Program-made: the position numbers and the translations under genes
IMG/VR virus record: IMGVR_UViG_3300050581_000202
Reading direction: 5' to 3' (one strand)
Length of the DNA: 64,000 nucleotides
Origin: a virus
Lineage: Duplodnaviria; Heunggongvirae; Uroviricota; Caudoviricetes
In this document: positions 9,230 through 59,323 of the stretch, in pieces
Layout: every line of letters starts with the position of its first letter
How positions within the stretch are numbered: position 1 is the stretch's first letter
The notes under the pieces: generated by a model
Databases searched by the model: none
What the model was told of the DNA's origin: nothing
The model's input: the letters and a program-made list of their open reading frames with translations, nothing else

Positions 9230-9253
9230 GTACGTGTCACCTCACAAGCTGCG

Positions 9254-11032: not shown

Positions 11033-11089
11033 AGGCGCAGGGTTTCTCCGCAGTTGGCGGTTCTTAGCGGGTTGAAGAGAGACGACGGG

Positions 11090-25565: not shown

Positions 25566-25587
25566 CGGTGCATCCGCGTCATACGTT

Positions 25588-25672
25588 GACACCTATACAA
25601 GACTGCCAAAGTCCCGTTTTTTCCCAACATTTCTGGGAAACTGCGAGCTTTTGGCAGTCTTGTATAGGTGTC
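25588..25672. promoter_or_regulatory. 24-bp near-perfect inverted repeat with a nested palindrome, in the divergent ParB-like / primase-helicase intergenic region
   Basis: GACACCTATACAAGACTGCCAAAG (25588-25611) and CTTTTGGCAGTCTTGTATAGGTGTC (25648-25672) are reverse complements with a single T indel. The 36-nt spacer contains TTCCCAACATTTCTGGGAA (TTCCCA-N7-TGGGAA). Confidence 0.7.
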
Positions 25673-25758
25673 TACGCGGCCCGCTCTTCGAGGCCGGATG
25701 CCATGCGCGTTTATACGCCCACTACGGATCGACCGACGCGGCCATTCAGAGAGATGTC

Positions 25759-33288: not shown

Positions 33289-36192
33289 TCACTCCTCGCT
33301 TTGCAGGAAGGCGGTCCCCGCACCGAACTTCTCGGTGATAAAGTCGAAGGCGAAATCGAACTCGTGCTCGCCGTAGGTCGAGTCCCACATGGAAACGTCC
33401 GTGCGGATCGCCAGATAGTCGTCTCCGTTCTTGAGCACGTCCGACAACGGCTGGCCTTCCTCATGCTCGTCGTCGGCGACCAGCGCCGAGCGGTCAATCG
33501 TCAGATCGCCGTCCTCATTGATGCCGTGGAAGATCGACGACAAGGAGGCCACCTTCGGCTCGTCCCCGGATGTGTCGAGAACCTTCGTCTTGTGGAGATC
33601 AACCGTGACCTCCGTGGTCGTCGTCTTGTACGGAGTGATGGCCGGCAGGCCGCGCCGCTTGTAGACGTTCAGGTTCAATCTCGGCCGCGATCCTGGCGAG
33701 AGGTTGATGTAGGTGGAGCTATCGACCACGGGTTGGGCGGCAAAGCCGGCGTCCGTAGGCGTGCTGTCGCCCCAATCGCTACGGGCCTTGAAGACGACGT
33801 TCGGCCCGCCTACGAAAACGATGCTGCTGGCGGGAATCGCCGACGTGTCGCCCACGGGCAGGCTGCCGGTCGCCCCTCCGCCGATGCCGCCGCCTCCGGC
33901 CTGCCCCGCCGCGATCTCGTCGGCGGGCGGCCAGGTGTCGCTCTCCGGCAAGGCCGCCGGCCAGAAGAAACGGTACTGCTCCATCTTCCCGGACAAGACC
34001 GGCACAAGGCACTCGAAATCCACCAGGTTGTCCGCCGAGTTGTAGTTGGCCTTCTCCACAATCGCCAGCACGGGACCGCTTGCCACGTATTGGCCGGCGA
34101 AGTCCAACGTCACGGCGTCGAACGTTTCCAGGTTCAGCTTGTTCAGGAAGGTTTTGAACTTGATCCGCTTCCAGGTGTTCGACTTGCGAATCAGCCAAAA
34201 CGTCGCGCACTTGTACGCGATGTCGGGCTGATTGAAGATGTACCAGTCGTATTCCCGCTCTTGCGTGCCGTACTTGGCGACGTTGTGGCGGAGGATGATG
34301 GTCTTTTCGTTCGTGTCCTGCTTCCGATCCGAGGCGGCGGCCCAACTCAGCCGCCACTTCACCTTCATCTTCGTCACGATTTCTTCCGTGCTCGTCAACT
34401 CGACTTCGATGCCGTTCTCGGCGTCGATGTCGCTCACCCGGATCGTGTCGGCCGGGACGGGCTGCTCCGGCAGGTACTTCAAGTAGAATTTGCCGTTGCT
34501 GATCCAAATGGCGCAGCGAGCCTGGAAGGCAAGTTCCTGCAACACGTCGATGGTGTTCTTCCGGTCCAGGATCGGAAAGTTGGCCGGGAACGGAGCGAGC
34601 TTCGTCTGAACGTGGTTGAAGCTGGCGGTGTCCCACGCCAGGTCCGTGTAGTGGGAGATCAGGTACTTGAGGATGTCCACGATGTCCGGGCCGACGTTCG
34701 ACTCGAACGTGACGTAGAGATCGTCGCTCCATCCTTGGTCGGTGATCGTCGAGAGCGGCTTGTTGACGACGATCTCGACCGCCGTGACCGTCCCGTAGGT
34801 CTTCGTCTGGACCGTGTACAGGTCGGTCGGCACGTCCACCAGACGGCGCTCGCCGGTAAGCTGCTTGTAGGCCCGCACCGCCAGGACCGTGCCCGGCACG
34901 ATGGAAGCGATGTAGGTAATCGGCTCGTCACTGGCGAGCGTGACGCTCGCGCCGGGATCGACCCAAAAGTGCTGGGCCACCGGCGAAGTGTCCATTTCGC
35001 TGACCGTAGCGCTCGTGTTGGTAATCACGACGCCCTGGTCGAGAATCTTGTTGCCCCTGGGGAAGCCGTCGCCGCAGCCATTGGGCACCTCATCTTCCCA
35101 GCGGTAGTAGGTCGTCTGCGTCGGCTCGTTGCAGACCGCCGGCTCGGTGGTCTTCTCCGTGTAGGCGGCCTGGGCCGCCGCATCATTCGCCGGGTGCGTG
35201 CGGCTGGTCACGTAGAACAGGTCGCCCTCGAAATGGCCGGTGAACAGGCCGCCGTTGATGTTCAGCGTAATCGCCTTGTTCTGCGGGAAGTCTTCTCCGC
35301 CGAGGATATGGACGGGGTTCTCGCCGACGCCCTTGGCGTTGGCCTCGTCGATCTGCTGCCGCTTGCGGGCCAGGGCACAGGCCCGTTGCTTGCTCTGCCG
35401 CGCGATCGCCTGCTGGACCTGTTGGTTGAGCGAGTCGATCTGCTTCTGGAGATCGTCCGCCTTCTTCCGGTCCACGGCCGGGTGGAAGGCCGGTGCCCAG
35501 CAGTCTTTCACTTTCTTCAAGTGGCTGATCTGCGCGAGCATCACCAACAGGCTCATGGTGAACTGCGAGTCGTCGGCCCCGTCCGAAAGCGTCTCCCACA
35601 ACTGCATCCCGCTGAGGATGCCCGTGGCGGTCAGCGTGGTGCCGGACACGGCCTTGTTGACTTGCAGTGCGGGGCAGTTGACCACCTTGCCGAAGATCAT
35701 CGGCCACGCCTTTCCCACCATGTCCGCCGGCAGGTAAGGAAACTGCCCCTCTTCCGCGGAGAAGCCGATTTCCTTGTCCTCAAGCTGCGAGAGGATCGTG
35801 AACTTGACCGTCCGATCCCGCTCGCTCCACGTAATGGGCGAACTCACCTTGCCGGCGAACAGCAGGAACCTGTCGGACAGCGCGAGTCCACTGAAATACT
35901 GGTAGACCCGCGCCGTCCGCTTGTGAACGTCGTGGCTATCCAGGATGGCCTTGATCGTGCCGTCCGTGTCGTCCAGCGTGATGGAAAGCTGCTGCGAACC
36001 GCTGTTGTCGCTCACGTTGACGACGTTATCGAGATCGCCGACCTCGATGATCCGCCCAGGGATCGTGCTCACGTCGCGGTCGGCGTAGACGGCCGTGTTG
36101 CCGTTCACCCAATCCACTTCGATGATGGTGATGGGTTCGGTGCCGCAGCGGGCCGCCAGCTTCGCCAGTCCAGCGGGGGATATGTTTCTCAC
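33289..36192 (-). CDS. large tail tip / host-specificity (J-like) protein
   Basis: 967 aa at the distal end of the tail module. An ATGA overlap links it to the upstream gene. Confidence 0.55.
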   Translation of the reverse strand: MRNISPAGLAKLAARCGTEPITIIEVDWVNGNTAVYADRDVSTIPGRIIEVGDLDNVVNVSDNSGSQQLSITLDDTDGTIKAILDSHDVHKRTARVYQYFSGLALSDRFLLFAGKVSSPITWSERDRTVKFTILSQLEDKEIGFSAEEGQFPYLPADMVGKAWPMIFGKVVNCPALQVNKAVSGTTLTATGILSGMQLWETLSDGADDSQFTMSLLVMLAQISHLKKVKDCWAPAFHPAVDRKKADDLQKQIDSLNQQVQQAIARQSKQRACALARKRQQIDEANAKGVGENPVHILGGEDFPQNKAITLNINGGLFTGHFEGDLFYVTSRTHPANDAAAQAAYTEKTTEPAVCNEPTQTTYYRWEDEVPNGCGDGFPRGNKILDQGVVITNTSATVSEMDTSPVAQHFWVDPGASVTLASDEPITYIASIVPGTVLAVRAYKQLTGERRLVDVPTDLYTVQTKTYGTVTAVEIVVNKPLSTITDQGWSDDLYVTFESNVGPDIVDILKYLISHYTDLAWDTASFNHVQTKLAPFPANFPILDRKNTIDVLQELAFQARCAIWISNGKFYLKYLPEQPVPADTIRVSDIDAENGIEVELTSTEEIVTKMKVKWRLSWAAASDRKQDTNEKTIILRHNVAKYGTQEREYDWYIFNQPDIAYKCATFWLIRKSNTWKRIKFKTFLNKLNLETFDAVTLDFAGQYVASGPVLAIVEKANYNSADNLVDFECLVPVLSGKMEQYRFFWPAALPESDTWPPADEIAAGQAGGGGIGGGATGSLPVGDTSAIPASSIVFVGGPNVVFKARSDWGDSTPTDAGFAAQPVVDSSTYINLSPGSRPRLNLNVYKRRGLPAITPYKTTTTEVTVDLHKTKVLDTSGDEPKVASLSSIFHGINEDGDLTIDRSALVADDEHEEGQPLSDVLKNGDDYLAIRTDVSMWDSTYGEHEFDFAFDFITEKFGAGTAFLQSEE

Positions 36193-36629: not shown

Positions 36630-39002
36630 CTATGCCGGCACCAACTCACCCTCGAACTCCATGCTGGCGGTGTAGCTATCCTTGCCGTCCTGGACTACTG
36701 CGTCGGCTGGCGTCGTGATGATGCCTTTCCACGTCCGGCCTTCCCAATCCAGCAGACCGATCTCTTCACCGAGGTGCGCGTCCAGGAAGGCGAGCAACTG
36801 CCGGGTCTGAGCGTTGCGTAGGCCGGAAAATGTCAGCACGAGAGTCTGAATCTTCGGCCAGATCGGATCGGCGAAGACGATTAGCGTGCCGCCTCGTGTC
36901 TCCCGGAGGATGCGGTTGAACGCAAGGCGATCCTTGTTGCCGAAGTTCGGTGCCCGCAGCACGACCGAATCCGTTACGACGCCTTCGGCCGGGTAGAACA
37001 ACTGGAACGGCAGGGCGACGTGCTCCGGCGCTTCCAACAGCGGCGGGGGCGGCGTCGGCGATCCATCCGCCCCGGCCCCGACGAACGGGCTGTACCGTTG
37101 GAGGGCACCCCGCGAGACGATGGTGTAGGCCGCCGCCTGCTGCAAGCCGAGGGCCGAGGCCGCCCCGCGGGGGACGCTGACCAGCACGGCCGCCGCCTGC
37201 GACAGGTCCAGGACCGAGCGCACGATCTTGCATTTGTTTACCGTGGCCGACTGGCCCAGTGCCAGCCAGTTGCCGGCCCCGCCGGTCTGGTTGAGGCGAA
37301 CTTCGCCCAGCAGGTCCAGGACGCTTTCGGCCGAAACGCTGATCGCGGTCGGCTTGACGCGAACCGCCGAGGCCAACTGCGCCAACGAGATCGCCTGGTG
37401 GACCGAGGTCGCCAGCGGCCGAGCCGGATGGGCCGAATCCCGCAGTCCCTCGTAGACTGGATAAAACGTGTCGGTCGCCTGATCGTACTGGTAGCCGACC
37501 GTCTGCAACGGGCTTTCAGCGGACAAGTGCCAGGGTCGGGCCGTGTGCTCGGTCTGGACCAGATTGATCGTGTTCCGTGCGGACACCTTCCGCACCACGC
37601 TCACCGCGGCCTCGTCGTAGAGGAAAACCCAGTCCCAGCACTCCGCGTTGTGGACGGCGGTTTTGATGGCGCTGGCCGCATCGGTCAGCGATAACTCGCT
37701 GGTTGCCGCCGCCTCCAACAATCGGCCGACTTGTTCGCCCGTCGCGCCGAGGCTGAGGATCGACTCGGCACTGACCGGGAGAATCTGGTTGCGCGCGGCC
37801 GTGCCCGTCAGGCTGATCGCGGACTCGGCACCGACGCACAATATGTTGTTGCGCCCAGCCGCACCGTCCAAGTCGAGCGTGTTGGACGCCGCGACGGCGT
37901 AAGCCACTGTGAAACCTGCTTCGATGCTCAATCCCAAAAGCGATTCGGCGGCAACGTCAAAGACCGTTCGGCCGGTCATCTCGGCGGCATCGGTTAGAGC
38001 GACAACGCTCTCGGCCGACAGCGACCGCACGGCCTTGAATCCGGCCGCATCGGTCATGGGGATATTACTCGACGCCACCACCGCCCTTGCAACCGAAAAG
38101 CCGGCCGCCGTGTCCAGGTTCAGCGTAGAGAGGGCACTGGCGTCGAGAAGGCTGTTGCGGCCAGCGGCGTCCGTCAAGCTGATCGGCGATGCAGCCGAAA
38201 CGCTAAGGAGGTTGTTTCGGCCGGCGGCATCGGTCAAGCTGAGTACCGATTCTGCCGTTGCCGGCCGGGCGACCGCCGCTGCGGCCGTCTGCGACAGCGA
38301 CAATTCGCTGGCGGCATCGGCGTAGACGAAGGCCGTCGTGCCCTCGCCCTCTTGCAGGCCGAGAGCCAAACGCACGCCGCCCAGCAGCGAGTTGGCCGTG
38401 CCCAGTTTCCCGGTCAGGCTGCCGGTCAACGGCCGGGCGTCGGCTGGACCATCAGAGGCCAGCGTCACGCCGCCCAGGCAGGAATCCTGGCCGCCCAAGA
38501 CCCAACGAGGGGACGAACGGGGTGCGAAGGTTGGAGTAGGATCGGCCGTCTGCGCGATCGCCAACGCGCTTTCGGCCGAAAGATGAAAGACCCGAGGGCC
38601 GGCTACTCCGTCCAGGCCGAAAACCACGTCACCCAGGGCCGTGCCCAGTTGACCGCTCTGCGTGGTGGGCGTCGGAAGCGAGGGCGGCGCGCCATCGAAG
38701 GCCGGCACCAGGCCGCCGAATTGCGAGTCGTGCCCACCGAGTACCCAATCCGGCGTGGAATGGGCTGCGAAGGTCGGATCGGATGCCGCCGTGTGCGCAA
38801 GCGAAAGCGCGCTCGCGGCCGAGACGTTGAAGGTCAATCGACCTTCCCCGCCCGCCGAGGCGAGAATCGTAGCTCCCAGTTGACCACCGAGTTGCCCGCT
38901 CTGCGTCGTGATTGCCGGCGCGCTCGGGGCGGCACCGGCAAACGCCAACTCGACGTTCGCCAGCAGGGAGTCGCCAGTGCCTAGCTTGCTGGTCAGCGCC
39001 AT
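36630..39002 (-). CDS. repeat-rich tail protein (N-terminal ~75-aa duplication plus ~11 tandem 20-aa repeats)
   Basis: 790 aa. Residues ~30-105 and ~108-185 are near-duplicates (TTQSGQLG...WVLGG.DS..GG). Residues ~228-452 consist of 20-aa repeats of consensus SAESxLSLTDAAGRNxLLxV. Confidence 0.55.
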   Translation of the reverse strand: MALTSKLGTGDSLLANVELAFAGAAPSAPAITTQSGQLGGQLGATILASAGGEGRLTFNVSAASALSLAHTAASDPTFAAHSTPDWVLGGHDSQFGGLVPAFDGAPPSLPTPTTQSGQLGTALGDVVFGLDGVAGPRVFHLSAESALAIAQTADPTPTFAPRSSPRWVLGGQDSCLGGVTLASDGPADARPLTGSLTGKLGTANSLLGGVRLALGLQEGEGTTAFVYADAASELSLSQTAAAAVARPATAESVLSLTDAAGRNNLLSVSAASPISLTDAAGRNSLLDASALSTLNLDTAAGFSVARAVVASSNIPMTDAAGFKAVRSLSAESVVALTDAAEMTGRTVFDVAAESLLGLSIEAGFTVAYAVAASNTLDLDGAAGRNNILCVGAESAISLTGTAARNQILPVSAESILSLGATGEQVGRLLEAAATSELSLTDAASAIKTAVHNAECWDWVFLYDEAAVSVVRKVSARNTINLVQTEHTARPWHLSAESPLQTVGYQYDQATDTFYPVYEGLRDSAHPARPLATSVHQAISLAQLASAVRVKPTAISVSAESVLDLLGEVRLNQTGGAGNWLALGQSATVNKCKIVRSVLDLSQAAAVLVSVPRGAASALGLQQAAAYTIVSRGALQRYSPFVGAGADGSPTPPPPLLEAPEHVALPFQLFYPAEGVVTDSVVLRAPNFGNKDRLAFNRILRETRGGTLIVFADPIWPKIQTLVLTFSGLRNAQTRQLLAFLDAHLGEEIGLLDWEGRTWKGIITTPADAVVQDGKDSYTASMEFEGELVPA
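37650..38320 (-). repeat. tandem ~60-bp (20-codon) repeats inside tail gene 36630..39002
   Basis: About 11 degenerate copies encoding SAESxLSLTDAAGRNxLLxV. Recurring nucleotide strings such as CGGCCGCATCGGTCA and CGGCGGCATCGGTCAAGCT are present. Confidence 0.6.
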
Positions 39003-39005: not shown

Positions 39006-40001
39006 TTAGCTCTCTTCCCAATGGAGCAACGTCAGGGAAATCCTGTTGTTGTTGCTCAGCGGGTCGATGAAGATGCCGTGTTGATTAGGGGCGTTCGCCG
39101 AATCGAAGGTAAGCTCGCCCCATTTGATCCAATTCACGCCGTCTGTTGACCAGTACCAGCGCTTGTAGTTCCCCTCCCAGGAGAATTTGACCCAGAACAC
39201 GCGCCACAGCGGCCAGAGGGTCCGGTTGTCTGCCGTGGGCGTGGACTCCGAAGCGGTTGGCGAGTAGTAATTGACGTTTTCGAGGAACGGATAGGTGCTG
39301 GTCTGCCAGAAGCGCAGGCCCCAGGTCGTGAAGTTCCCGTAGTCCGTAGTCCCGCCCGTGCAACGCGAGACGAAACCGCACTTCGGGCCGTTCATCGAAG
39401 CCGCCCCGTTGTAGGCGAAGGCCGCCACGACGCTTTGCACGCCGGGCATCAGCGACCGGACGTAAAGCCGCAGTTCGGGAGCGATGGTATCCAGGTCGGG
39501 GTCTTCGAGAACCAACGCCCCGCCAACGAAGGTTGCAGTGGCGTTGCCCTGATTGACCCATTCCCACCCGGTTTGCGGCGGAGCCTTGAAGCGTTTATAC
39601 GGCCCGTACTTGTGCCAGGCCGCCCCATCGTCGTACTCCAAGAAGAGGCCGTCCGTGGGAAGAAACAGCCGCCCCCTCACCCCGGCGGCCGGCTTGTTGG
39701 CGTAGATGTCCGAGACAAACCGGTTGGCGACCCGCGCCTCCAAGCCGCCTTTGGTGAGCAGGTGAACCACGTCGGCCCCGCTGTCGTGGCTGGCCGCCAC
39801 GGTGCCCTCCGCACCCCGCGTGACGGTGAACGTGCTGCCGGCCACGCCGGTCACGATTAGGATTTCGCCGTCGATCTTGATGCGAAAGCTGCCCGAGGCG
39901 GGAAACGCCGAGGCGTCCGTCACCGTGCAACTGGTGGCGGTCGGCGTCTCAATCGCGGCGGACAACGTAGTCGTAGCGTTGTTGGCAAACTTCTCGGTCA
40001 T
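39006..40001 (-). CDS. putative tail fibre / receptor-binding paralog C2
   Basis: Start MTEKFANNATTTLSAAIE (TGATG overlap). About 330 aa, ~70% identical at the N-terminus to C1. Ends in LLHWEES. Confidence 0.55.
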   Translation of the reverse strand: MTEKFANNATTTLSAAIETPTATSCTVTDASAFPASGSFRIKIDGEILIVTGVAGSTFTVTRGAEGTVAASHDSGADVVHLLTKGGLEARVANRFVSDIYANKPAAGVRGRLFLPTDGLFLEYDDGAAWHKYGPYKRFKAPPQTGWEWVNQGNATATFVGGALVLEDPDLDTIAPELRLYVRSLMPGVQSVVAAFAYNGAASMNGPKCGFVSRCTGGTTDYGNFTTWGLRFWQTSTYPFLENVNYYSPTASESTPTADNRTLWPLWRVFWVKFSWEGNYKRWYWSTDGVNWIKWGELTFDSANAPNQHGIFIDPLSNNNRISLTLLHWEES

Positions 40002-41002
40002 CAGTATTGCCTCCAACTGAGGACGGTCATGCCAGTGTTGACCTGACCGCTCGACGAGGAATAGCCGGCATAGGAGTTGACGCCTATCCCGATCTGGTTG
40101 GGCGTTATCCAATCCGTCCGCACGATGCTCACCATCTGCGTCCAGTTGATGCCGTCGTGCGAGAACGAGATCACGCGGTTGGTGGTGCCGTCGTCGTAAT
40201 ACCGCAACCAGATCAGCGGCGAGTCGTAGCAATGTCGATTACTTGGCCAGCCGGTGACTTCGCCGCTTACCGAGGTGGGGCTGTTGTACTTGACGCCCCT
40301 TGTCTCCATGCTGCTCGAACTGCCGCCAACGCCGTAGGCCACAATCTTGCCGCTCCCGGAATCTCGGATGCACAGGCCGGCAGTAGCGTATGCGCCCCCG
40401 TAGCCCCAGGCATTGACCAGGAAGGCCATCTCCACGGTAAAGGGCGCGGCAGGATACGCCTTGACCTGGCAGCGCAGGTTCTCGCCACTGGTGGCCGGAC
40501 CTGAATCCAGGAAGATCGCCCCTTTGTTGTCCACAATGGTCGCGCTTCCCTGATTCACCCACGTCCCGAAGTCGGCCGCCGCCGGAGGCGTCATGGGCCA
40601 GATCGGGCCGAACTTTTCCCAGGCCGCACCATTGTCGCGTTCGAGGAACAGGCCATCGGTCGGCAGGAAGATGCGCCCCGGCACCCCGGCCGCGGGCCGA
40701 CTGGCCAGCGCATCGTAAGCCGCCAAGTCGTTCTGGTCGCGGGCGTCCAGTGCCCCGGCCGTCAGGACATGCTTCACGTCCGCTCCGGTGCCGTGGGCGA
40801 CGGCCGACGTTCCTTCCTGGTGGCGCGAGACGGTCAATGTCGTCCCGCTGACGCCCGTGACCAGCATGATCTCGTTGTCGATCAGGATGCGGAAGTTGCC
40901 GCCGGTGAAGCCCATTGCGCTGGCCACGTCGAACTCGGTGGCCGCATCGTCGATGTCTTCGCTCAGCGTGGTGCTGGCAAGATTCTTGAACTGCTCGGCC
41001 AT
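40001..41002 (-). CDS. putative tail fibre / receptor-binding paralog B2
   Basis: Start MAEQFKNLASTTLSEDIDD (TGATG overlap with A2). Paralog of B1. Ends in VLSWRQY. Confidence 0.55.
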   Translation of the reverse strand: MAEQFKNLASTTLSEDIDDAATEFDVASAMGFTGGNFRILIDNEIMLVTGVSGTTLTVSRHQEGTSAVAHGTGADVKHVLTAGALDARDQNDLAAYDALASRPAAGVPGRIFLPTDGLFLERDNGAAWEKFGPIWPMTPPAAADFGTWVNQGSATIVDNKGAIFLDSGPATSGENLRCQVKAYPAAPFTVEMAFLVNAWGYGGAYATAGLCIRDSGSGKIVAYGVGGSSSSMETRGVKYNSPTSVSGEVTGWPSNRHCYDSPLIWLRYYDDGTTNRVISFSHDGINWTQMVSIVRTDWITPNQIGIGVNSYAGYSSSSGQVNTGMTVLSWRQY

Positions 41003-41979
41003 CAGGTTTCCCTCCAATGCAGAACGGAGACCACGCGCGGGATGCCATACGAGGTCTTCCAGTTGTTGGCAAACAAGCCGACCTGGTTCGGCGTAAGGAA
41101 AACCGTTCGCCCTTGGGGAGGCTGGACCGGCACCCAGTTGAACCCGTCGCTGGAGATTTCCACCGTCCGGTAGGTGCCGTCGTCTCCGAAGCGAACCCAG
41201 TAGGGTGCCATCGTCGGCGCGCTGAAGTTGTACTGGCTGCCTTGAAGGGTCGTCTCGTTCGTCCACCAGGCGTACAGGAAGAGTTTGGGGTAGTTGCTCG
41301 ATCCCCAGCCATAAGTGAGCAGCTTGCCCGAACTGCTTTCTCGCCAGCAGACGCCGAACTGCGGGACGTTCCACGCATTGAGATAGAGCGGGTCTTGCGC
41401 CAAGAAGCCCACGGTAATCTTGTAGGGCGTGGCCGGAGCCGACTTGACCAGACAGTGCAGGCCGTCCGCCGACGCATGGCTTGGCGCGGTCACAACCAGG
41501 ATGCCCTTCGTGTCCGCGACCGTGGCGGTTCCCTGGTTGACCCAGGTGAAGTCGCCGCTGCTGGGCGGCGTCACCTTGTTCAAGGGCAGCGTGTCCCATA
41601 GCGAGCCGTTGTCTTGATGCACGAGGCCCTCGGTCGGCAGATAGAGACGGCCGGCTTGCCCCGCTGCATCACGGTCGGCAATGGCCCCGGCGGCAAACTG
41701 CTCGGCCTCCCGCCGCGCCAGGGCACCGGCCGTCAGGACGTGATTGACGGCGACATCGGCGTCGTGGCTGGCGGCACTGGTCCCTTCCTGCGCCCGCGTG
41801 ACGGTGAAGACGTTGCCCTGCACGGCCGTCACCAGCATGATCTCGCTCTCGACGAGGATGCGGAAGTCGCCGCCGGTGGGAAAGCCGGCGGCCGACTTCA
41901 CCGTCAGGCTGAGATCGTTGCTGCCGATCCCCGCGGAGAGCGAAGAGAGTCCGCCGTTTGCAAATCGTTCGTAGGCCAT
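41002..41979 (-). CDS. putative tail fibre / receptor-binding paralog A2
   Basis: MAYERFANGGLSSLSAGIGSNDLSLTVKSAAGFPTGGDFRILVESEIMLVTAVQGNVFTVTRAQEGTSAASHDADVAVNHVLTAGAL. Paralog of A1. A GAGGGA RBS is present. Confidence 0.55.
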   Translation of the reverse strand: MAYERFANGGLSSLSAGIGSNDLSLTVKSAAGFPTGGDFRILVESEIMLVTAVQGNVFTVTRAQEGTSAASHDADVAVNHVLTAGALARREAEQFAAGAIADRDAAGQAGRLYLPTEGLVHQDNGSLWDTLPLNKVTPPSSGDFTWVNQGTATVADTKGILVVTAPSHASADGLHCLVKSAPATPYKITVGFLAQDPLYLNAWNVPQFGVCWRESSSGKLLTYGWGSSNYPKLFLYAWWTNETTLQGSQYNFSAPTMAPYWVRFGDDGTYRTVEISSDGFNWVPVQPPQGRTVFLTPNQVGLFANNWKTSYGIPRVVSVLHWRET

Positions 41980-41991
41980 CGGTGGTCCCTC

Positions 41992-42984
41992 TTAGGCTTC
42001 TTCCCAGTGGACCAGGGACATCGACACCTTTTGGGCGTTGTTCACCGGGTCGATGAAGACGCCGAACTGGCTCGGCGTGTTGTAGGAGGAGAAGGTATCC
42101 TCGTACCATTTCGTCCACCACACGCCATCCTGGGAAAAGTACCAGCGTTTGTAGTTCCCCTCCCACGAATACTTCACCCAGAACAGCCGCATGGGAAACA
42201 ACTGGTGGCCGTCCGTCGAAGGACTCGATTCAATGGCCGTGGGTGACGTGTAGTGCTTGAAGTGCAGGAAGGTCATGGGGTTGCTCGGCGAGGGCTGAAG
42301 CCGGAGGCCCCAACCCGTGAAGTTCCCATCGTCCGAGCCGCCGACGCACCGCGAGCAAAGGCCCATGATCGGGTAGTCCGTCCCGATGCCGTTGTACGTG
42401 AAAGCCACCGCCACGCTCGTCACGCCCACGCCCAAGCAGCGGACGTAAAGCCGAAGCTGTGGAGTCGTAGCGTCGAGGTCGGGGTCTTCGAGCACCAGCG
42501 CGCCGCCCACGAAGGTCGCCGTGGCGTTGCCCTGGTTGACCCACGACCATCCCGTTTGCGGCGGCGCTTTGAGCCGCTTGTACGGCCCGTACTTGTGCCA
42601 GGCGGCCCCGTCGTCGTACTCCATGAAGATGCCGTCCGTGGGGAGGAACAAGCGTCCCTTGACGCCGGCCGCCGGTTTGTTGTCGTAGATGTCTGAAATG
42701 AACCGGTTGGCGACCCGCGCCTCCAAGCCGCCTTTGGTGAGCAAATGCCGCACGACCGCGCCGCTGGCGTGGGTTGCCGCCACGGTGCCCTCGGCCCCGC
42801 GCGTGACGGTGAACGTGTTGCCGGAGACCTCCGTGACGATGAGGATTTCGTCGTCGATCTTGATACGGAAGCTGCCGCCGGCAGGGAAGCTGAACGGGTC
42901 CGTCACCGAGCAGATGGTGGCAGTCGTTGTCGCAATTGAGGCCGACAGCGTGTTGACGGCAAAGTTGGCGAACTTCTCGATCAT
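41992..42984 (-). CDS. putative tail fibre / receptor-binding paralog C1
   Basis: Start MIEKFANFAVNTLSASIA (TGATG overlap). Ends in LVHWEEA. Confidence 0.55.
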   Translation of the reverse strand: MIEKFANFAVNTLSASIATTTATICSVTDPFSFPAGGSFRIKIDDEILIVTEVSGNTFTVTRGAEGTVAATHASGAVVRHLLTKGGLEARVANRFISDIYDNKPAAGVKGRLFLPTDGIFMEYDDGAAWHKYGPYKRLKAPPQTGWSWVNQGNATATFVGGALVLEDPDLDATTPQLRLYVRCLGVGVTSVAVAFTYNGIGTDYPIMGLCSRCVGGSDDGNFTGWGLRLQPSPSNPMTFLHFKHYTSPTAIESSPSTDGHQLFPMRLFWVKYSWEGNYKRWYFSQDGVWWTKWYEDTFSSYNTPSQFGVFIDPVNNAQKVSMSLVHWEEA

Positions 42985-43973
42985 CAGTATTGCCTCCAGT
43001 GCAGCAGGGTGAGGGCCGTGTCGCATTGGCCGCTGCTCAGCGAGTAGCCGCAGTAAGAGTTGACGGCGATGCCAAGCTGATTGGGCACGATCCAGTCCGT
43101 CCGCGAAATGCTGAGGGCCTGCACCCAGTTGTAGCCGTCCACGGAGTACGACATGACGCGGTTGTTCCCGTCGTCCGCGTACTTGAGCCACACGATGGCC
43201 GTTTCGCCAAAGTGGCAGGCCGCCGCCCCCGTGACATTGCCGCTGGAAGACGTGGGGCTGTTCCAGTTGTAGCACTGGACTTGCAGATCGCCGTTACTGC
43301 CCCCGATGCCGAGGGTGACGAGTTTCTGGCTGATTGAATCACGGAGCATCAGGCCGCCAACCCCGGTGCCGTTGTACGGCCAGGCGTGGAGCAGATACGC
43401 CATTTCGATGGTGAACGGCGGGGCGGGATAGTCCTTCACCCGGCAGCGGAGGTTGGTATTGCTGTTGACCGGCGCGACGAGAAGCGGCGCGCCTCTGTAA
43501 TCGGTGAATGTCGCCGTCCCCTGGTTCACCCACGTCGGGAAGTCGGCCGCCAGGGGAGGTGTCAGGGGCCAGATCGGGCCGAACTTCTCCCAGATCGAGC
43601 CGTTGTCACGTTCGAGGAAGATGCCATCGGTCGGCAGGAAGATGCGGCCCGGCACTCCGGCCGCCGGCCGGTTGGCGTAGGTATCGTAGGCGGCCAAGTC
43701 GTTCTGGTCATGGGCGTCCAAGGCCCCGACCGTCAAGACGTGCTTCACCGCCGCGCCGTTGCTGTGCGCCGTGGCAGGCGTCCCTTCCTGGCCGCGCGCG
43801 ACCGTCAAGGTCGTGCCGCTGACGCCCGTGACCTTCATAATCTCGCTGTCCACGAGGATGCGGAAGTCGCCGCCGGAGAAGCCCATCGCGCTGGCCACGT
43901 CAACGTCGGTTTCCGAGGCGTCAAGGTCTTCGGCGAGAGTGGTGCTGGCAAGGTTCTTGAATTGCTCGGCCAT
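42984..43973 (-). CDS. putative tail fibre / receptor-binding paralog B1
   Basis: Start MAEQFKNLASTTLAEDLD (TAATG overlap with A1). Ends in LLHWRQY. Confidence 0.55.
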   Translation of the reverse strand: MAEQFKNLASTTLAEDLDASETDVDVASAMGFSGGDFRILVDSEIMKVTGVSGTTLTVARGQEGTPATAHSNGAAVKHVLTVGALDAHDQNDLAAYDTYANRPAAGVPGRIFLPTDGIFLERDNGSIWEKFGPIWPLTPPLAADFPTWVNQGTATFTDYRGAPLLVAPVNSNTNLRCRVKDYPAPPFTIEMAYLLHAWPYNGTGVGGLMLRDSISQKLVTLGIGGSNGDLQVQCYNWNSPTSSSGNVTGAAACHFGETAIVWLKYADDGNNRVMSYSVDGYNWVQALSISRTDWIVPNQLGIAVNSYCGYSLSSGQCDTALTLLHWRQY

Positions 43974-44950
43974 TACGCTTCCCTCCAATGCAGGAAAGAG
44001 ATATTTCGGGCCAGGACATTGCTCGTCTTCCAGCTATTGGCGAAGACCCCCACTTGGTCGGCCGTAAGAAACACGGTGCGGCCCTGCGGCGCGGCCACTG
44101 GCTCCCAGTTGAATCCGTCCAGCGAGATTTTCACCGTCCGGTTGGCCCCGTCGTCCGCGAACCGAATCCACACGATACCGGATGCGACCATGCTGGCTTG
44201 CAGCACATTCGTCGAAACGGTCGTAGGGTTCGTCATTTGGGTGTAGTTGAACGTGGTCGGGTAGCTCGCCATGCCCGGACCATAGAGAAGGAGTTTGCCG
44301 GAGCCGCTTTCTCGCCAGCAAACGCCGTACTGCGCCATCGCGCTGGCGGTGGTGTAGGTCGGCGAGAGGGCCAACATGGCGACGGTGATCTCATAGGGGG
44401 TCGCCGGCGCGGTCTTGACGAGGGCGCGAATGTTCTCGCCGGACGCCACGCCGGGCGTCGAGAGCACCATCATGCCCTTGCTCATGGCCACCGTCGCGCC
44501 GCCCTGATTCACCCAACTGAAGTCGGCGCTGTCGGGAGGGGTGAAGCGGCTCAAGGGCATCATGTCCCACGACAAGCCATTGTCTTGATGCACGAATCCT
44601 TCGGTCGGCAGATAGAGCCTGCCCGCCTGCCCGGCCGCATCGCGGTTGCCGACCGCGCCGGTGGCGAACTGCTCGATGTCCCGCTGGGCCAAAGCGCCGG
44701 CCGTGAGGACGTGGAAGACGGCAGCGTCGGCGTCGTGACTGACCGCGCTGGTCCCCTCCTGCGCCCGCGTGACGGTGAAGGTCTTGCCCTGCACGGCCGT
44801 GACCAACATGATCTCGCTGTCAACAACGATGCGGAAGTTGCCGCCGGTGGGGAATCCAATGGCCGATTTGACGGTCAGGCTGAGATCGTCGCCGTCGATC
44901 CCCGCCGAGAGCGAGGAAAGGCCGCCGTTTGCGAAGCGTTCGTAGGCCAT
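43973..44950 (-). CDS. putative tail fibre / receptor-binding paralog A1
   Basis: MAYERFANGGLSSLSAGIDGDDLSLTVKSAIGFPTGGNFRIVVDSEIMLVTAVQGKTFTVTRAQEGTSAVSHD... Ends in FLHWREA. Confidence 0.55.
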   Translation of the reverse strand: MAYERFANGGLSSLSAGIDGDDLSLTVKSAIGFPTGGNFRIVVDSEIMLVTAVQGKTFTVTRAQEGTSAVSHDADAAVFHVLTAGALAQRDIEQFATGAVGNRDAAGQAGRLYLPTEGFVHQDNGLSWDMMPLSRFTPPDSADFSWVNQGGATVAMSKGMMVLSTPGVASGENIRALVKTAPATPYEITVAMLALSPTYTTASAMAQYGVCWRESGSGKLLLYGPGMASYPTTFNYTQMTNPTTVSTNVLQASMVASGIVWIRFADDGANRTVKISLDGFNWEPVAAPQGRTVFLTADQVGVFANSWKTSNVLARNISFLHWREA

Positions 44951-44992
44951 TGGGATTCCTCAAGGAGAGCAGAAGGGCGAAAGAAAGGCCGA

Positions 44993-45016
44993 GCGGGGCT
45001 TCTTGCGAAGCCCCGC
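44993..45016 (-). terminator. GC-rich hairpin (10-bp stem, 4-nt loop) followed by CUUUCUUUC on the transcript: candidate intrinsic terminator
   Basis: GCGGGGCTTC-TTGC-GAAGCCCCGC between the stop of 45041..45646 and the start of fibre paralog A1. The minus-strand downstream sequence is CTTTCTTTCGCCC. Confidence 0.5.
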
Positions 45017-45040
45017 CCGACCTGTGGCGAGGGAATACGT

Positions 45041-45646
45041 TTACGCCGAGACGGTGTACGTCACCTTCAACTGGTCGTCGGTGTTGACGGCCACGTCGCC
45101 CGTGCCGAACAGGGCCGTGGCCCAGAGGATCGCTCCGGCCGCCGCATTGTCGCCCTTCGTTTGGGCACCGGCGGCACCGCCGACCAGAAAGAGACCCTTC
45201 ACCGTGCCGCTACCGGTGATGTTGAAGACCACCGGGCTGGCGTTGGTAATCGACTGGCCGGAGGCCGCACCCTCGGTCCACTCGGGGCGGGTCGTGGCGT
45301 TGTCGCTGTTGGCGGCGTCGGTGTAGTCCGTGAACTCGGCCCAGCCGTTGCTGCCGCCGATCTGCGCGTACACGTCACCGGCTGCCAAGGCGGTGTAGCC
45401 GCTGTTGGAGATCAAGCCCAGCCACCAGGTCGTGATGGCCGAGACGCCGTGGAACATCACGTCCAGCAGCTTGTTTTTGCCCTGGTTGACGATCCCGTTG
45501 GGAAACTCGTAGTGGCCGATCTTCACGCCCTTGCGGAAGTGCTCGACCACGAACTTGCCACGGGGCTGGAGTTGGTCTTCGGCCTTGCGGGCGCGGACCA
45601 TGCTGCAACCCGCACTCTGGCCCAATTTCATCTGGCTGACACTCAT
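45041..45646 (-). CDS. putative tail-associated beta-sandwich protein
   Basis: 201 aa, Gly/Thr/Asn-rich (SITNASPVVFNITGSGTVKGLFLVGG). Located between the tape measure and the fibre array. Confidence 0.4.
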   Translation of the reverse strand: MSVSQMKLGQSAGCSMVRARKAEDQLQPRGKFVVEHFRKGVKIGHYEFPNGIVNQGKNKLLDVMFHGVSAITTWWLGLISNSGYTALAAGDVYAQIGGSNGWAEFTDYTDAANSDNATTRPEWTEGAASGQSITNASPVVFNITGSGTVKGLFLVGGAAGAQTKGDNAAAGAILWATALFGTGDVAVNTDDQLKVTYTVSA

Positions 45647-45669: not shown

Positions 45670-48600
45670 TTACAAGGTTGCCGTACCACGCCGCAATTCA
45701 CGCCTTAGCTCAGCGGCGATGGACCGAGCCGTCTGGCGGCTGGTTCCGCCGCCCGTTACCGTCACGTTGATGTCACCGATGTTGGTGACGCTGCCGCCTT
45801 CGCTGCGGTACACCGGCTGGACGCCGGCATTGATGGCAGTCAGTTGCGCGGCGAACTTCCGCGCGGAGGCGGCATTGATAACCACCTCGCCCGGCGAGAG
45901 CATCGCCGGGATCACATCTGTGCCCTGGGCCTGGCCGCCAAGGGACAAGAAGTTCCACGCGATCCGGCCCTTGGCGGCAGTCAGGGCCGATGGCGGGGCT
46001 TGCACGCTCCACGAGGCGGCAGCCAAGTCCCACATGGCCGTGGCCGCCGCCTGGATGTCGCCGGCCAGGCTCGCCATGCTCGGCATTGCGCTTAGGGACG
46101 TTTGTGCCGCCTTCGCGCCTTCACCCATTTCGGTCGCCGCCTGGGGATTCAATTTGTCGATCAATTCCTTGAGGCGGTCGGCCTCTTGCCGGGCTTTCAG
46201 CAACTCCGCCTCCACATTGCGGGTCTGACCTTGCGGCGTCTGCAACTTCTTCATCGCCTCCGCTTGATCGGCCAGGAACTTCAAGTTGGCCATCTGGTTG
46301 GTGATGAAGGTCTGGTCCCATCCTGTCACGGTGGGCATGGCCATCACGGCGGTGGCCTTCTTCTGCAATTCCTCAAACTCTTTCAGGCCGAAGCCTTTGC
46401 CGCCGGTCTCCTGCAACTGCCGAAACTGCCCGACCAATTCTGCCAGGGCCTTTGTCTCCTTCTGGATGTCCCCGCCGCCGAGGATCGCGCCTTTGGCCTT
46501 GGCCGCCGCTTGCATCAAGAAGGTCGATGTCTTCTCCATGCCTTCCTGGTAGATTGCGTTGTTCGCGCCCAGGGCACCCACGGCCGCTTTCTGCCTAGTC
46601 GTGGCCTCCGTGAGTGTCGTTTGCTCGGCCGTGAGCTTCTTGACCAGTTCTGTCTGCTTCGCGTACTCCGCGTTCTGTCGCGTGAGGTACGCCTCCTTGT
46701 CGGGCAAAGGCATTTCTCCCAACAGCCTCTTGGCAAGGTCGGGAGAGGCGACGGGCAGCAGGACGGAGACATCCACCGGCTTCAGGCCCGCCTCGATCTG
46801 GCTGCGCAGGTCGTCAATCGCCTTCGGCGCGGCCAAGAGCTTCTGGACCTCCGCCTCCGAGACGCCGCCCTCCAAGGCCGTCTTGACCCGTTGGCTGAGG
46901 GCGTCGAACTTCAGCATCTCGTCCAGGCTGAGATCAGCCGTGCCGTCCATCCATTCCTTCTTGAAAGCAGCCATCTTCTGCTTCAAGTCTTCCGACATGG
47001 CGGCTGATTTCTTCGGGTCCACCGGGCCGCGCTTATCGAACAAGTCCAGGTCCGTGAGGATGCCCTTCATCAAGACCTTCATCCGGTCCACGCGCTCTTG
47101 CTCTTTCGCCGCCGCTTGGGCCGCGGCCGAGGCGCGGGAATCGCTGTTGCGCTGAAGTTCCTTTTCCGCGTCGATCTGCTTGCGGATGATCGACTCCACG
47201 GTGTTCGCGGCGTCTTTCCGCAGCCACTCGTTCTCCGTCCCCTTGGCGATCTGCTCGGCTTCCTGGGCGTAGGCCGTCGCCCGCTGGAAGATCGCCTGGG
47301 CCGTTCGCTCTTGGTCCGGGGTCTCCGCCTTGGCCAAGAGGCCCGCTGCTTGCTGCGCCAGTTCGAGCGCACGCCGGCCGTACATATCCGACGTGACTTC
47401 GGGCTGCTTGTAGTAGCTGTCGTACTTCTGACGCTCTTCGAGTCGTCGCTTGAAGAGCAGATCGTCCAGCTTGGCTTGCGAGTCCGCCTGGCGCTTCACG
47501 GAGTCTTCGGCCGCCTTGTTGGCGTCCTGGGCGGCCGCGCGGAACTGCTGCACGACCTTTTCGCGGGTCGAGATCATCGCCTGCATCGTGGTCCGCGAGG
47601 AGATCACCAACTCCTCATTGGTCTTTCGCGCCTGGTCCACCTGGGCGTTGTACGCCTTGCGGACCTCCGCCGTGTACTGTTCTAGGCGACGGCCCGCTTC
47701 GTCGTAGACCTTCATCTCGGCGTCCAGCCGCTCTTGGGCGGCCTTTCTCTGCGCCTGTACGGTCTCCTCAACCTTCGCACGGAAGTTCGCGTTGGCATTG
47801 TCCAGCATCGACGCCATGCGCTGATCGAGGAATTCGGTAGTCCACACCGCCATGCTCAGCGGCGCAACGACGTTGTTGAAGAGGACGCCCCCGAGGCCGG
47901 TGAATCCCGCCAACTTGGCGCGGAGCGAGAACGCCGCCAGCGCGCCGCCGGCAATCGCTAGCGGCTCGGCCAATTGGCTTGCCGTCATCGCAACGCCCTT
48001 CAGCGCGGCGGCCAACCCCTCCGCCCCGCCCGCGGTCTTCAAGAGGGTGCCAAGGAACTTGACCAGTTCCGGCCCAACCTCGGTGGCCAGCGAGACCTTA
48101 AACTTGTTCAACTCCGCCATGTACTGCTGGGCGTCGGTGGAGGTGAACGTCTTGAATATCTCGTTGAAGTTGTCCGTGAGCGTCCCGTCGCTCATCGCCT
48201 TCATGGCCTCGGCCGCTTGTTCCGCGCCCGAGCCGGTCAAACGCAACTCAGCGTTCAGGGCACGGATGTTGCGGAACATTTTGGCAGTGGCCGCCACATC
48301 CTCGTTCACGCTATCACGCAGCGCAAGGAAAGTCCCTTGCAGGCCCAGCGCATGGATCATCTGCTGACCCGTCTCATAGCCCAAACCATGCAACTCCTTC
48401 TTCAAGTCCTCGGAGGGCTTGATGAGGGCCGACATCGCCGACCGGAAGCTGGTCGCCGCCTCGGGGACGCGCATAGAGCTAATGGTCAGCGCGACCATCG
48501 AGGAATTGACTTCATCCAGGTTGACGCCCAACTCGCTGGCAATCGGCACAAGGCGACCAATCACCGGCGTCAACTCGGCACCGCGGGTACGGCCCAATTC

Positions 48601-49482
48601 GATGGTCTTGAAGAACTTGGCGGCCACCGTCTCGGCCTGGTTGGACGCCATGCCGTAGCCGTTGAGCGTGCCAGTCAAGAGCATCGCCGCCTCATTCAAG
48701 TCCATCACGCCGACCTTAGCCAGCTTCGCGGAGGCCGTCATAATGTCCGCACGTTGCTGCGCCGAGGTGAACTGGTTGGACAGCGTTTGATACACAGCCT
48801 CGGCCACGTCGGGCAGCGGGAAGTTGAACTCGCGCGAGATGTCGGCGACTTCCTTGCTCAACCCCTGGAAACTCTTGTCGATGCTCGGGGCAATGGTCTG
48901 GATTTCCGCGATTTTCGTGGAGAACTTCAATGCCTGGTCCACCGACTCTCGCAAGAGATCGCGGATTTGGCTTAGCGCACGGACGATGGCCTGGGTCATT
49001 ACCACCCGCGTCAGGGTCTCCCAGGTGACGGTCCACGCCTTGGTCTTCTCGGCAGCATCTTTCGCCGCGCTACCGGCATCCGAGCCGGCCTTCTTGCCCT
49101 TCTGCCCTGCCTCGCGCATCTTGTCCCCGGCGGCAGCCGCCGTGTTGCCAAGCTGATCCATCGTCTGGTTGGCTTTCTGGGCCTCCGCCGTTACATCGGG
49201 CGGCAGCCAGAGCTTCGAGGTGGGCGCAGCCACCGTCGCGGCGGGAGTCACTGGGCCGTTGCCCATCTTCGCCATCGAGTTGGCCAGCCGCGAGGCGGCC
49301 GAGGCCATGTCCTTCATCCGGTTCAGCGCGCCTTCCGCCTGGTTGTTCCAAGCGTTCATCCGCTCGCCGAACGTCTGGAAGGCCGTGCCCGACGATTGCA
49401 GCGCAGAGTCCAAGCGCTGAAGCTGCTTGAGAGCATCTTCGACGCTGAAGCCGAGTTTATTGACAATGGTTTCGTCGGCCAT
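45670..49482 (-). CDS. tail tape measure protein
   Basis: 1270 aa. Alpha-helical, Ala/Gln/Lys/Glu-rich coiled-coil composition with Gly-rich segments. Located between the chaperone genes and the distal tail genes. Confidence 0.85.
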   Translation of the reverse strand: MADETIVNKLGFSVEDALKQLQRLDSALQSSGTAFQTFGERMNAWNNQAEGALNRMKDMASAASRLANSMAKMGNGPVTPAATVAAPTSKLWLPPDVTAEAQKANQTMDQLGNTAAAAGDKMREAGQKGKKAGSDAGSAAKDAAEKTKAWTVTWETLTRVVMTQAIVRALSQIRDLLRESVDQALKFSTKIAEIQTIAPSIDKSFQGLSKEVADISREFNFPLPDVAEAVYQTLSNQFTSAQQRADIMTASAKLAKVGVMDLNEAAMLLTGTLNGYGMASNQAETVAAKFFKTIELGRTRGAELTPVIGRLVPIASELGVNLDEVNSSMVALTISSMRVPEAATSFRSAMSALIKPSEDLKKELHGLGYETGQQMIHALGLQGTFLALRDSVNEDVAATAKMFRNIRALNAELRLTGSGAEQAAEAMKAMSDGTLTDNFNEIFKTFTSTDAQQYMAELNKFKVSLATEVGPELVKFLGTLLKTAGGAEGLAAALKGVAMTASQLAEPLAIAGGALAAFSLRAKLAGFTGLGGVLFNNVVAPLSMAVWTTEFLDQRMASMLDNANANFRAKVEETVQAQRKAAQERLDAEMKVYDEAGRRLEQYTAEVRKAYNAQVDQARKTNEELVISSRTTMQAMISTREKVVQQFRAAAQDANKAAEDSVKRQADSQAKLDDLLFKRRLEERQKYDSYYKQPEVTSDMYGRRALELAQQAAGLLAKAETPDQERTAQAIFQRATAYAQEAEQIAKGTENEWLRKDAANTVESIIRKQIDAEKELQRNSDSRASAAAQAAAKEQERVDRMKVLMKGILTDLDLFDKRGPVDPKKSAAMSEDLKQKMAAFKKEWMDGTADLSLDEMLKFDALSQRVKTALEGGVSEAEVQKLLAAPKAIDDLRSQIEAGLKPVDVSVLLPVASPDLAKRLLGEMPLPDKEAYLTRQNAEYAKQTELVKKLTAEQTTLTEATTRQKAAVGALGANNAIYQEGMEKTSTFLMQAAAKAKGAILGGGDIQKETKALAELVGQFRQLQETGGKGFGLKEFEELQKKATAVMAMPTVTGWDQTFITNQMANLKFLADQAEAMKKLQTPQGQTRNVEAELLKARQEADRLKELIDKLNPQAATEMGEGAKAAQTSLSAMPSMASLAGDIQAAATAMWDLAAASWSVQAPPSALTAAKGRIAWNFLSLGGQAQGTDVIPAMLSPGEVVINAASARKFAAQLTAINAGVQPVYRSEGGSVTNIGDINVTVTGGGTSRQTARSIAAELRRELRRGTATL

Positions 49483-49493: not shown

Positions 49494-50420
49494 CTAGGAC
49501 TTCACTCGCACGATACGCAGATGGGGCTTGACGGCAGGAAGGTCCACGCTTTCCGCAAACCGTAGGAAGGCCGTGGCCCCTTTGATCTGGAAGTTGTAGG
49601 GGCCGGGTTCAAGCAGCCGGTAGAACAGCGTCGGGTCGGGATCGACGTTGGCGTTGTGGTACTCGTTCCAGATCAGCCAGGGCAGTGTCGTCGTGTAGGT
49701 GAACGTGTACTCGCCGGTCTCCTTGTCCGTCGTCAGCTTGCCGTCGCTATGCGCCATACCCATCCAGGCACGGTCCATTCGTTCCGTGAACAGCCCGTGA
49801 GCCGCATTGACGGCCGCCGGCGCTACGGGCAGACTGTAGCCAATCTGCCCGGCCAGCTTCACAAACGTCGCCCGAGACGCCCCGCTCCACACCGGAATCT
49901 CCGCCAAGACCGCCTCCAGCCACTCCATGAGGCCCTGGGCAATCGCGGCCTTCAGGTGCGAATCGAGCGTGTTGCGGTAGGCCGCCACGTCGATGCGCGG
50001 GATGGAGAACTGGGCCGTGAACTTCATGGTGCCCTCCAGGTAGGCAGCCGCATTGAGCAAAGACTGCGGATCGTCCTTGAAAGCGCCCAACCCGGTGTTA
50101 CACCTATTGCACAAGAGACCACGCACTTCGCCGGTCGCGTGGTCGTGGTCAACGCAAAACTGGCCTTTTGCATTGGTGCCGGGATCAAAGCTGCCACAAA
50201 TTGCACATGCACCTCCCTGCTGCCTCAGCATCCGCTCGTATTCATCCCGGCTGAGGCCAAACTTCTTCTGAAGCTGGTAGTCCCGGCAACATTCCTTGCA
50301 CCACGGACGACCTCGGCCTCGTAACTGGGCCTTCTGATAGGCTGTACGAGGCTTCTCCTGCTTACACACCCAGCAACGCAGTGATCCAGATTCGGTCAAG
50401 CTCGTTTCACTGCTTATCAT
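49494..50420 (-). CDS. endonuclease VII-like (Endo VII) N-terminal domain fused to a ~180-aa domain of unknown function
   Basis: CAICGSFDPGTNAKGQFCVDHDHATGEVRGLLCNRCNTGLGAFKD matches the Endonuclease_7 motif (CxxC...D.DH.TG.VRGLLC..CN..LG). A C-terminal domain starts around MKFTAQFSIPRID. Confidence 0.65.
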   Translation of the reverse strand: MISSETSLTESGSLRCWVCKQEKPRTAYQKAQLRGRGRPWCKECCRDYQLQKKFGLSRDEYERMLRQQGGACAICGSFDPGTNAKGQFCVDHDHATGEVRGLLCNRCNTGLGAFKDDPQSLLNAAAYLEGTMKFTAQFSIPRIDVAAYRNTLDSHLKAAIAQGLMEWLEAVLAEIPVWSGASRATFVKLAGQIGYSLPVAPAAVNAAHGLFTERMDRAWMGMAHSDGKLTTDKETGEYTFTYTTTLPWLIWNEYHNANVDPDPTLFYRLLEPGPYNFQIKGATAFLRFAESVDLPAVKPHLRIVRVKS

Positions 50421-50582
50421 CCGCCCCTCTCTCAGAACGCCCGAAAGGCATCCTCACCCCGGCCAATTGAGCCTCCCGCTCCGCTTCGTCGTGACTTCGC
50501 AGTTGGTCGAAGGCGACGATCAAAGCCTGGGTCTCAACACCGCACTCGTCCCAGGACGGCCTGACGCCCGGCGGCCGGATAG

Positions 50583-59310: not shown

Positions 59311-59323
59311 GACGAACCTCTCG

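Follow-up and report, generated by a model that had tools for sequence, protein, structure and literature searches.

Paralogous, probably receptor-binding tail proteins encoded by a duplicated gene triplet in a phage of Planctomycetota

Findings

The stretch of DNA examined here, 64,000 nucleotides (nt) long and referred to in its entirety as the window, comes from a tailed virus (Caudoviricetes; IMG/VR record IMGVR_UViG_3300050581_000202) and carries six consecutive minus-strand genes that encode homologous proteins of 325-333 amino acids (aa) in the order A-B-C-A-B-C. An earlier note, made from the sequence alone, described these genes as a duplicated triplet of fibre-like proteins. From the sequences and predicted structures of the proteins, their relatives and their genomic surroundings, we propose, with a probability of roughly 0.6, that the products of the six genes are short, modular proteins for receptor binding, which would reside at the tip of the tail in a siphovirus-like temperate phage of Planctomycetota. 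The array comprises the following elements.

43973-44950, minus strand: gene A1, 325 aa; anchor at residues ~1-82, neck helix at 84-94/98, concanavalin-A-like (ConA-like) head at ~100-325
42984-43973, minus strand: gene B1, 329 aa, type B; start overlaps the stop of A1 (TAATG)
41992-42984, minus strand: gene C1, 330 aa, type C; start overlaps the stop of B1 (TGATG)
41980-41991, minus strand: C1/A2 duplication junction, a 12-nt spacer with a copy of the ribosome-binding region of gene A, GAGGGACCACCG
41002-41979, minus strand: gene A2, 325 aa, 66% identical to A1
40001-41002, minus strand: gene B2, 333 aa, 66% identical to B1
39006-40001, minus strand: gene C2, 331 aa, 70% identical to C1
43973-43990, 42984-43000, 41002-41018 and 40001-40017: Shine-Dalgarno sites inside the ends of the upstream genes

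Organization and paralogy of the array

All six open reading frames (ORFs) are present with the coordinates, strand and lengths that the earlier note gave, and its account of the junctions is equally accurate. Four of these are stop/start overlaps, namely TAATG at A1/B1 and TGATG at B1/C1, A2/B2 and B2/C2, and the fifth, C1/A2, reads TAA-GAGGGACCACCG-ATG. The C-terminal motif reported in the note as LxHW(R/E)E is indeed shared, but in the looser form L-[HS]-W-[RE]-[EQ], with a serine replacing the histidine in B2 and with RQY at the end of both B1 and B2. In the A and B genes, the W-R codons of this motif (TGG AGG) supply the GGAGG that serves as the Shine-Dalgarno sequence for the gene that follows, 8 nt 5' of its ATG, so that the HW(R/E)E motif is partly dual-coded; in the predicted model, the tryptophan of the motif sits in the final strand of the beta-sandwich described below.

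The duplicated A-B-C arrangement is borne out by pairwise comparison. Over the full length, A1 and A2 share 66% identical residues, B1 and B2 66%, and C1 and C2 70%, compared to 33-44% between types. The N-terminal 95 aa, the domain common to all six proteins, are 78-84% identical within pairs and 45-57% identical between types, and the remainder is more divergent, as previously noted, with 59-67% identity within pairs and 28-38% between types beyond residue 95. The earlier note had envisaged the possibility that the N-terminal similarity was an artefact of composition. However, A1 and C1 align over their full length in a BLASTP comparison with E=3e-47, and domain hidden Markov models (HMMs) derived from the six proteins match each copy at 1e-41 to 1e-106; the similarity among the six proteins is real homology, not a compositional effect. 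A blastn search of 50,697 phage records with the complete array as the query gave no match.

Domain architecture of the six proteins

In the AlphaFold2 model of A1, obtained with 76 sequences (mean predicted local distance difference test score, pLDDT, 90.3), a small beta-barrel makes up the N-terminal part, residues 84-94 form a helix, and the chain from residue ~100 to the C-terminal end folds into a large beta-sandwich; residues 1-99 were also modelled separately, with a pLDDT of 87.5. When compared to the sequences in the PDB, the profile of the six proteins matches, over residues 3-88, the 'putative tail fiber protein' of phage GP4 (8jov_1, E=1e-5), and the ~90 N-terminal residues also match the 'tail fiber protein' PHROGs 38058, 8469, 9851 and 11439, with E-values down to 4e-11. 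The N-terminal domain is predicted to adopt the GP4-type barrel fold, which resembles the folds of tailspike N-termini, and is followed by the neck helix. The neck segment (residues 84-100) varies from one type to another, being acidic in B and basic in C, and shows strong conservation among proteins of the same type. The idea that the neck forms a coiled coil was considered and dropped: the helix is just 11-15 residues long and shows no clear heptad pattern, so it permits no inference on the oligomeric state.

The C-terminal region, hereinafter the head, is a predicted jelly-roll beta-sandwich of the ConA-like type, and its nearest structural neighbours are non-catalytic carbohydrate-binding modules (CBMs). 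Phage receptor-binding modules of relevance to the A1 model are CBM2 of the J-1 distal tail protein (Dit), gp23 of phage Douge and the C-terminal domain of TM4 gp23. Comparison of the six proteins with Pfam and NCBIfam yielded no match, and the sole PHROG matched by the head region is 19068, annotated as 'unknown function'. The six proteins are, accordingly, predicted to be compact, with an anchor, a neck and a lectin-like head in a two-domain architecture, rather than elongated fibres. Tailspikes carry a beta-helix where these proteins have a lectin-type head, so that the head occupies the place of the beta-helix and the designation 'fibre-like' fits only loosely. The earlier assignment of the array to a receptor-binding fibre family is therefore supported with respect to receptor-binding tail proteins and overstated with respect to the fibre shape.

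A profile built from the head alone retrieved 8,574 clusters (at 50% identity; E<=1e-3). In the best 150 of these 8,574 clusters, the head is nearly always C-terminal, in proteins that are 223-1127 aa long. Among ten long members of the family that were scanned against Pfam, three contain F5/8-type-C (discoidin) domains and one contains the C-terminal sandwich domain of a phage depolymerase; matches to DUF1349 were below threshold, and a match to GH43_C2 was marginal. Taken by itself, the ConA-like fold is compatible with catalysis, and the head is probably a glycan-binding module. It is highly improbable, in our view, that the heads instead have polysaccharide lyase or hydrolase activity and serve as virion depolymerases, despite the depolymerase C-terminal domain found in the one long family member. 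The GH16 motif ExDx(x)E and the PL7 motifs RxExR and Q[IV]H are missing from all six proteins in a simple pattern search, as distinct from a structural comparison of active sites, and no enzyme family of Pfam or NCBIfam was matched. An enzyme family, which the earlier note had named as an outcome that would overturn its reading, is thus not indicated.

Proteins homologous to the head domain only are encoded in mycobacteriophages. In phage Redno2 (locus L186, positions 8890-9696), gene 40 encodes such a 268-aa 'hypothetical protein', and a head-only protein is also encoded by Thibault and other Omegavirus phages, which, like Redno2, we take to belong to cluster J; the gene follows the minor tail protein genes and precedes lysin A.

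Copy number and order in relatives

Three collection scans yielded 185 loci, in which every member of the family was located with the domain HMMs. The copy number does vary among relatives, and it does so in a strikingly constrained manner: the close lineage includes 34 complete arrays, 29 of them distinct, and these contain either three genes (24/29) or six (5/29), with no other number represented (0/29). The cyclic A-B-C order fits every locus, including the fragments. In the tree of 163 non-identical proteins, there are three clades that correspond to positions 1, 2 and 3, and positions 4, 5 and 6 nest inside them. The more distant relatives, among them members from Bryobacteraceae, from a Chthonomonadaceae genome and from an uncultured phage of 595 kb, possess 1, 2, 3 or 5 deep paralogs. 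Tandem expansion is a family-wide feature, and strict adherence to the rule of three is confined to this lineage. The earlier note considered a six-member array to be unusual; with arrays of 1, 2, 3, 5 and 6 genes in the family and the triplet as the ground state of the lineage, this assessment is too strong.

Two loci have peculiarities of their own. In the 595-kb uncultured phage (LR756511.1; locus L187, positions 6931-11079), two adjacent full-length members are accompanied by a nearby head-only copy, and tblastn matches occur at four places in the record. In a contig of a Planctomycetaceae metagenome-assembled genome (MAG; CAWBLA010000006.1, locus L008, positions 10001-12944), the triplet is broken by several frameshifts, which reflect either a decaying prophage or assembly errors.

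History of the duplication

The C/A junction is common to all six-gene loci: next to the stop codon of C, there are 12 nt similar to the ribosome-binding region that normally precedes A, as seen ahead of A1 and ahead of A in the three-copy loci. The presence of the same junction in all six-gene arrays implies that they were founded by one precise block duplication that spanned the region from the ribosome-binding site (RBS) of A to the stop codon of C. The synonymous divergence (dS) is similar across the three paralog pairs (0.82-1.00). The ratio of nonsynonymous to synonymous divergence (dN/dS), calculated for each of the six genes against the positional orthologues in six-gene phages (~80% identity), is 0.15-0.25, which indicates that all six are maintained by purifying selection. 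Across phages, the mean identity within a type is 75-80% for the anchors vs 58-62% for the heads. Some pairs of relatives are strongly discordant, for example, one with 94% identity in the N-terminal domain and 57% in the head and another with 69% and 90%, respectively; this discordance suggests exchange at the level of domains and is consistent with the recombinational swapping for which the array had earlier been considered a likely hotspot.

Alternatively, the second triplet could have been imported by recombination with a related three-gene phage instead of being duplicated in place, a scenario to which we give tentative, minority credence. The triplets of the window are 69-76% identical to those of three-copy phages (L114, L046 and L049), that is, as close as or closer than to their own paralogs (66-70%), and a neighbour-joining tree, for which there are no support values, separates positions 1-3 from positions 4-6, in clades that are interleaved with three-copy phages. 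However, faster divergence of both copies after duplication in place would yield the same pattern of identities, and the clean join between the C stop and the A RBS fits unequal crossing-over under either scenario. Between the two triplets and in the comparisons to the nearest three-gene phages, dS is 0.7-1.3, near saturation and equal within error throughout, so that dating of the duplication by dS is uninformative and the choice between duplication in place and import is not decided by this measure.

Phage and gene neighbourhood

The array is embedded in a gene order that is conserved in relatives and includes the following features.

59324-60997, minus strand (same strand as the array): large terminase
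57523-59409, minus strand (same strand as the array): portal
between portal and tape measure, same strand: scaffold-like and major head proteins
45670-49482, minus strand: tape measure protein, 1270 aa; PF10145 detected in an orthologue, tblastn matches to tape measure proteins
45041-45646, minus strand: 201-aa (or 186-aa) gene between tape measure and A1; phrog_8123; syntenic in relatives
44986-45023, minus strand: hairpin between the 201-aa gene and A1, just 5' of A1; 17-bp GC-rich stem, GCAA loop and T-rich tail; terminator-like
36630-39002, minus strand: 790-aa repeat-rich protein, starting 3 nt past the stop of C2
36189-36587, minus strand: 132-aa protein, paralogous to the C-terminus (~130 aa) of the 790-aa protein (BLASTP E=2e-6)
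33289-36192, minus strand: 967-aa protein; gene order with the array conserved, no family match

The array thus lies within the tail morphogenesis module, downstream of the terminase, portal, capsid and tape measure genes. The earlier note placed it after the tape measure, which is the correct order, but the 201-aa gene and the strong hairpin intervene. This hairpin is the top-scoring terminator-like site within the 36-50 kb region, and its sequence is kept in three-copy and six-copy relatives alike; its role might be that of a partial terminator or of an element that stabilises RNA, through which the expression of the array would be set. The profile of the 201-aa family matches the PDB entry 26la_U, 'Structural protein' (E=6.6e-6), and the gene product is probably a structural protein of the virion; a literature search for PDB 26la returned no relevant paper. 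For the 967-aa protein, a place in the distal tail or the hub is presumed.

The 790-aa protein contains two or three repeats of ~81 aa near the N-terminus and about ten repeats of ~20 aa (SAESxLSLTDAAGRN-like). The possibility that this protein serves as a docking 'rope', with a number of docking repeats that scales with the number of fibre genes, was considered as well. The homologues are 587-1024 aa long in three-gene phages and 790-829 aa long in six-gene phages (a comparison of lengths, not a direct count of repeats), and because the length does not track the number of fibre genes, the idea was dropped.

In the relatives, no gene of the size expected for a tail sheath was called in the interval from the capsid genes to the tape measure gene, so the particle is probably siphovirus-like. 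Close relatives are represented among IMG/VR viral contigs and are also integrated in the chromosomes of Thermoguttaceae and other Planctomycetota MAGs, including the MAG chromosomes OY762224 and OY780964, the latter observation implying that the element is a temperate phage of that phylum. A literature search on tail genes of planctomycete phages found nothing relevant.

Outside the array, compared to a 95%-identical contig (L001), the window contains an insertion of ~400 bp (50031-50438, minus strand, within ORF 49494-50420) with the coding sequence of an endonuclease VII/HNH-type domain (phrog_2633, E=1e-35). This insertion is in frame with, and directly 5' of, a 176-aa gene that is itself followed by the tape measure gene, and it has the appearance of a presence/absence polymorphism of a homing endonuclease. 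The window further encodes a family A DNA polymerase (11488-13989, minus strand) and a 1002-aa DUF5906-domain protein (25417-28425, plus strand); a tRNA scan of the window found none.

Proposed function and oligomeric state

Under the interpretation that we favour, the N-terminal barrel and the neck helix would fix each protein to the tail, as suggested by the homologous anchors of trimeric fibres and tailspikes, and the ConA-like head would bind a host surface glycan, as suggested by its fold and by the relatives that bear other carbohydrate-binding modules. The functional unit would be a fixed triplet, with one gene for each of three types that are old, non-redundant and distinct in their necks and heads; the genes are apparently co-transcribed and translationally coupled. 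Most likely, each type holds its own place in the adsorption apparatus, in the form of three distinct oligomers. A single tandem duplication, from the RBS of A to the stop of C, would have created the second triplet, after which the anchors would have stayed similar (78-84%) and the heads would have diverged (59-67%). The phage, then, might have a choice of two heads at each of the three positions and, conceivably, gain a broader or hedged range of glycans or hosts.

Several considerations weigh against this interpretation. The ConA-like fold also houses enzymes, such as PL7 and GH16, and the N-terminal barrel is found within large tail proteins and capsid proteins as well, so it is not solely an anchor. 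The 201-, 790-, 132- and 967-aa proteins that flank the array, compared as sequences or profiles to Pfam, PHROGs, NCBIfam and the PDB in various combinations, yielded no annotated homologue, with 26la_U as the sole useful match, and the tail-tip placement of the array consequently rests on gene order. Furthermore, independent homotrimers explain the existence of exactly three types only given three distinct sites.

A different, somewhat unlikely arrangement is that A, B and C, with one chain of each type, jointly form one heterotrimeric fibre that is held together by the N-terminal domains and the necks and bears three different lectin heads on one stalk, in which case the six-gene phages would assemble A1B1C1 and A2B2C2 and, perhaps, mixed trimers. 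In the close lineage, the number of genes is strictly three or six in a fixed A-B-C order and the duplication is seen solely as a whole block, the stop/start overlaps favour equimolar synthesis, and the necks are type-specific, with contrasting charges in B and C, all of which speaks for such a complex; there is also a precedent, given that three consecutive paralogous tail proteins of the virophage DSLV2 co-purify as a heterotrimer (PMC12724248). However, the arrays of 1, 2 or 5 deep paralogs in distant members of the family do not fit an obligate 1:1:1 trimer, and the translational coupling runs on into the 790-aa gene and so is not specific to the triplet. Moreover, the solved structures that contain this N-terminal domain belong to fibres and tailspikes encoded by single genes, which assemble as homotrimers.

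The third arrangement that we considered, an improbable one, is a ring collar around the distal tail protein, similar to BppU (gp23) of phage Douge, with quasi-equivalent positions filled by separate paralogs. The size and layout are the same, with a domain of ~100 aa, a linker and a CBM of ~200 aa, the gene is located in the tail-tip region, and distinct positions in a ring would explain the fixed number of non-redundant types. Nevertheless, the closest relatives of the N-terminal domain are fibre and tailspike proteins, which are trimeric, and the structural search with this domain did not recover Douge gp23.

From these results, the head family of 8,574 clusters acquires a probable function, namely that of a glycan-binding module at the C-terminal end of phage tail proteins. 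The array also represents a clear case of evolution in probable receptor-binding genes, in which a fixed unit underwent one block duplication, the anchors were kept and the heads diverged. To our knowledge, phage-host recognition in Planctomycetota is essentially unstudied, and the six proteins are specific candidates for adsorption in this phylum. Should the triplet prove to be an obligate heterotrimer, the interest of the finding would rise considerably: the triplet would then represent an adhesin that is obligately heterotrimeric and is conserved throughout a lineage of planctomycete phages, and the restriction of the copy number in the lineage to three or six would be explained.

Comparison with known systems

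The closest known counterpart of the anchor is in the tail fibre of the Ralstonia podophage GP4 (8jov chain 1, 439 aa), which, like PHROGs 38058 and 8469, has a homologous N-terminal domain. GP4, however, is a podovirus with one such gene, whereas the phage described here is apparently siphovirus-like and its lineage has three or six paralogs; the distal part of the GP4 fibre is also different (the 439-aa homologue in phage Gamede carries the annotation 'peptidase S74 domain-containing protein') and stands in place of the ConA-like head. The same barrel fold is present in phi297 gp61 (4ru5), AP22 gp54 (4y9v), K64-1 S2-4 (9k4a) and the K1 lyase (7w1c). These tailspikes and depolymerases have enzymatic heads that fold as beta-helices, and they are not known to be encoded by full-length paralogous genes that recur in a fixed order. 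Multiple receptor-binding proteins that are encoded side by side and displayed on one virion are familiar from phages such as CBA120 (TSP1-4) and phiKp24, in which they are thought to widen the glycan range; these sets, however, are heterogeneous in size and fold and form branched complexes, rather than a duplicated, ordered triplet of proteins with the same fold.

Gp23 (BppU) of the mycobacteriophage Douge (8zdo; PMC13033339) is a protein of ~310 aa that consists of an N-terminal ring domain and a CBM, and 12 copies of it, in two conformations, encircle the distal tail protein. The array proteins resemble it in having a ConA-like CBM after an N-terminal domain of ~100 aa and differ from it in that Douge gp23 is encoded by a single gene and in that its ring domain was not recovered by the structural search with the N-terminal domain described here. 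The tripartite tail proteins of the virophage DSLV2 (PMC12724248) are likewise encoded by three consecutive paralogous genes that are kept as a set. They resemble the tip of T4 gp37, a fold distinct from the barrel and ConA-like head of the array proteins, and their heterotrimer is biochemically supported, whereas the array is known from genes and models.

Phages with several neighbouring receptor-binding genes that combine conserved anchors and variable heads are well known, and so are the folds of both domains, so that the array can be regarded as a well-organised but fairly ordinary set of host-recognition genes. What is new is the probable function of the head family, the fixed, ordered triplet, the single block duplication with a defined junction, and the planctomycete host.

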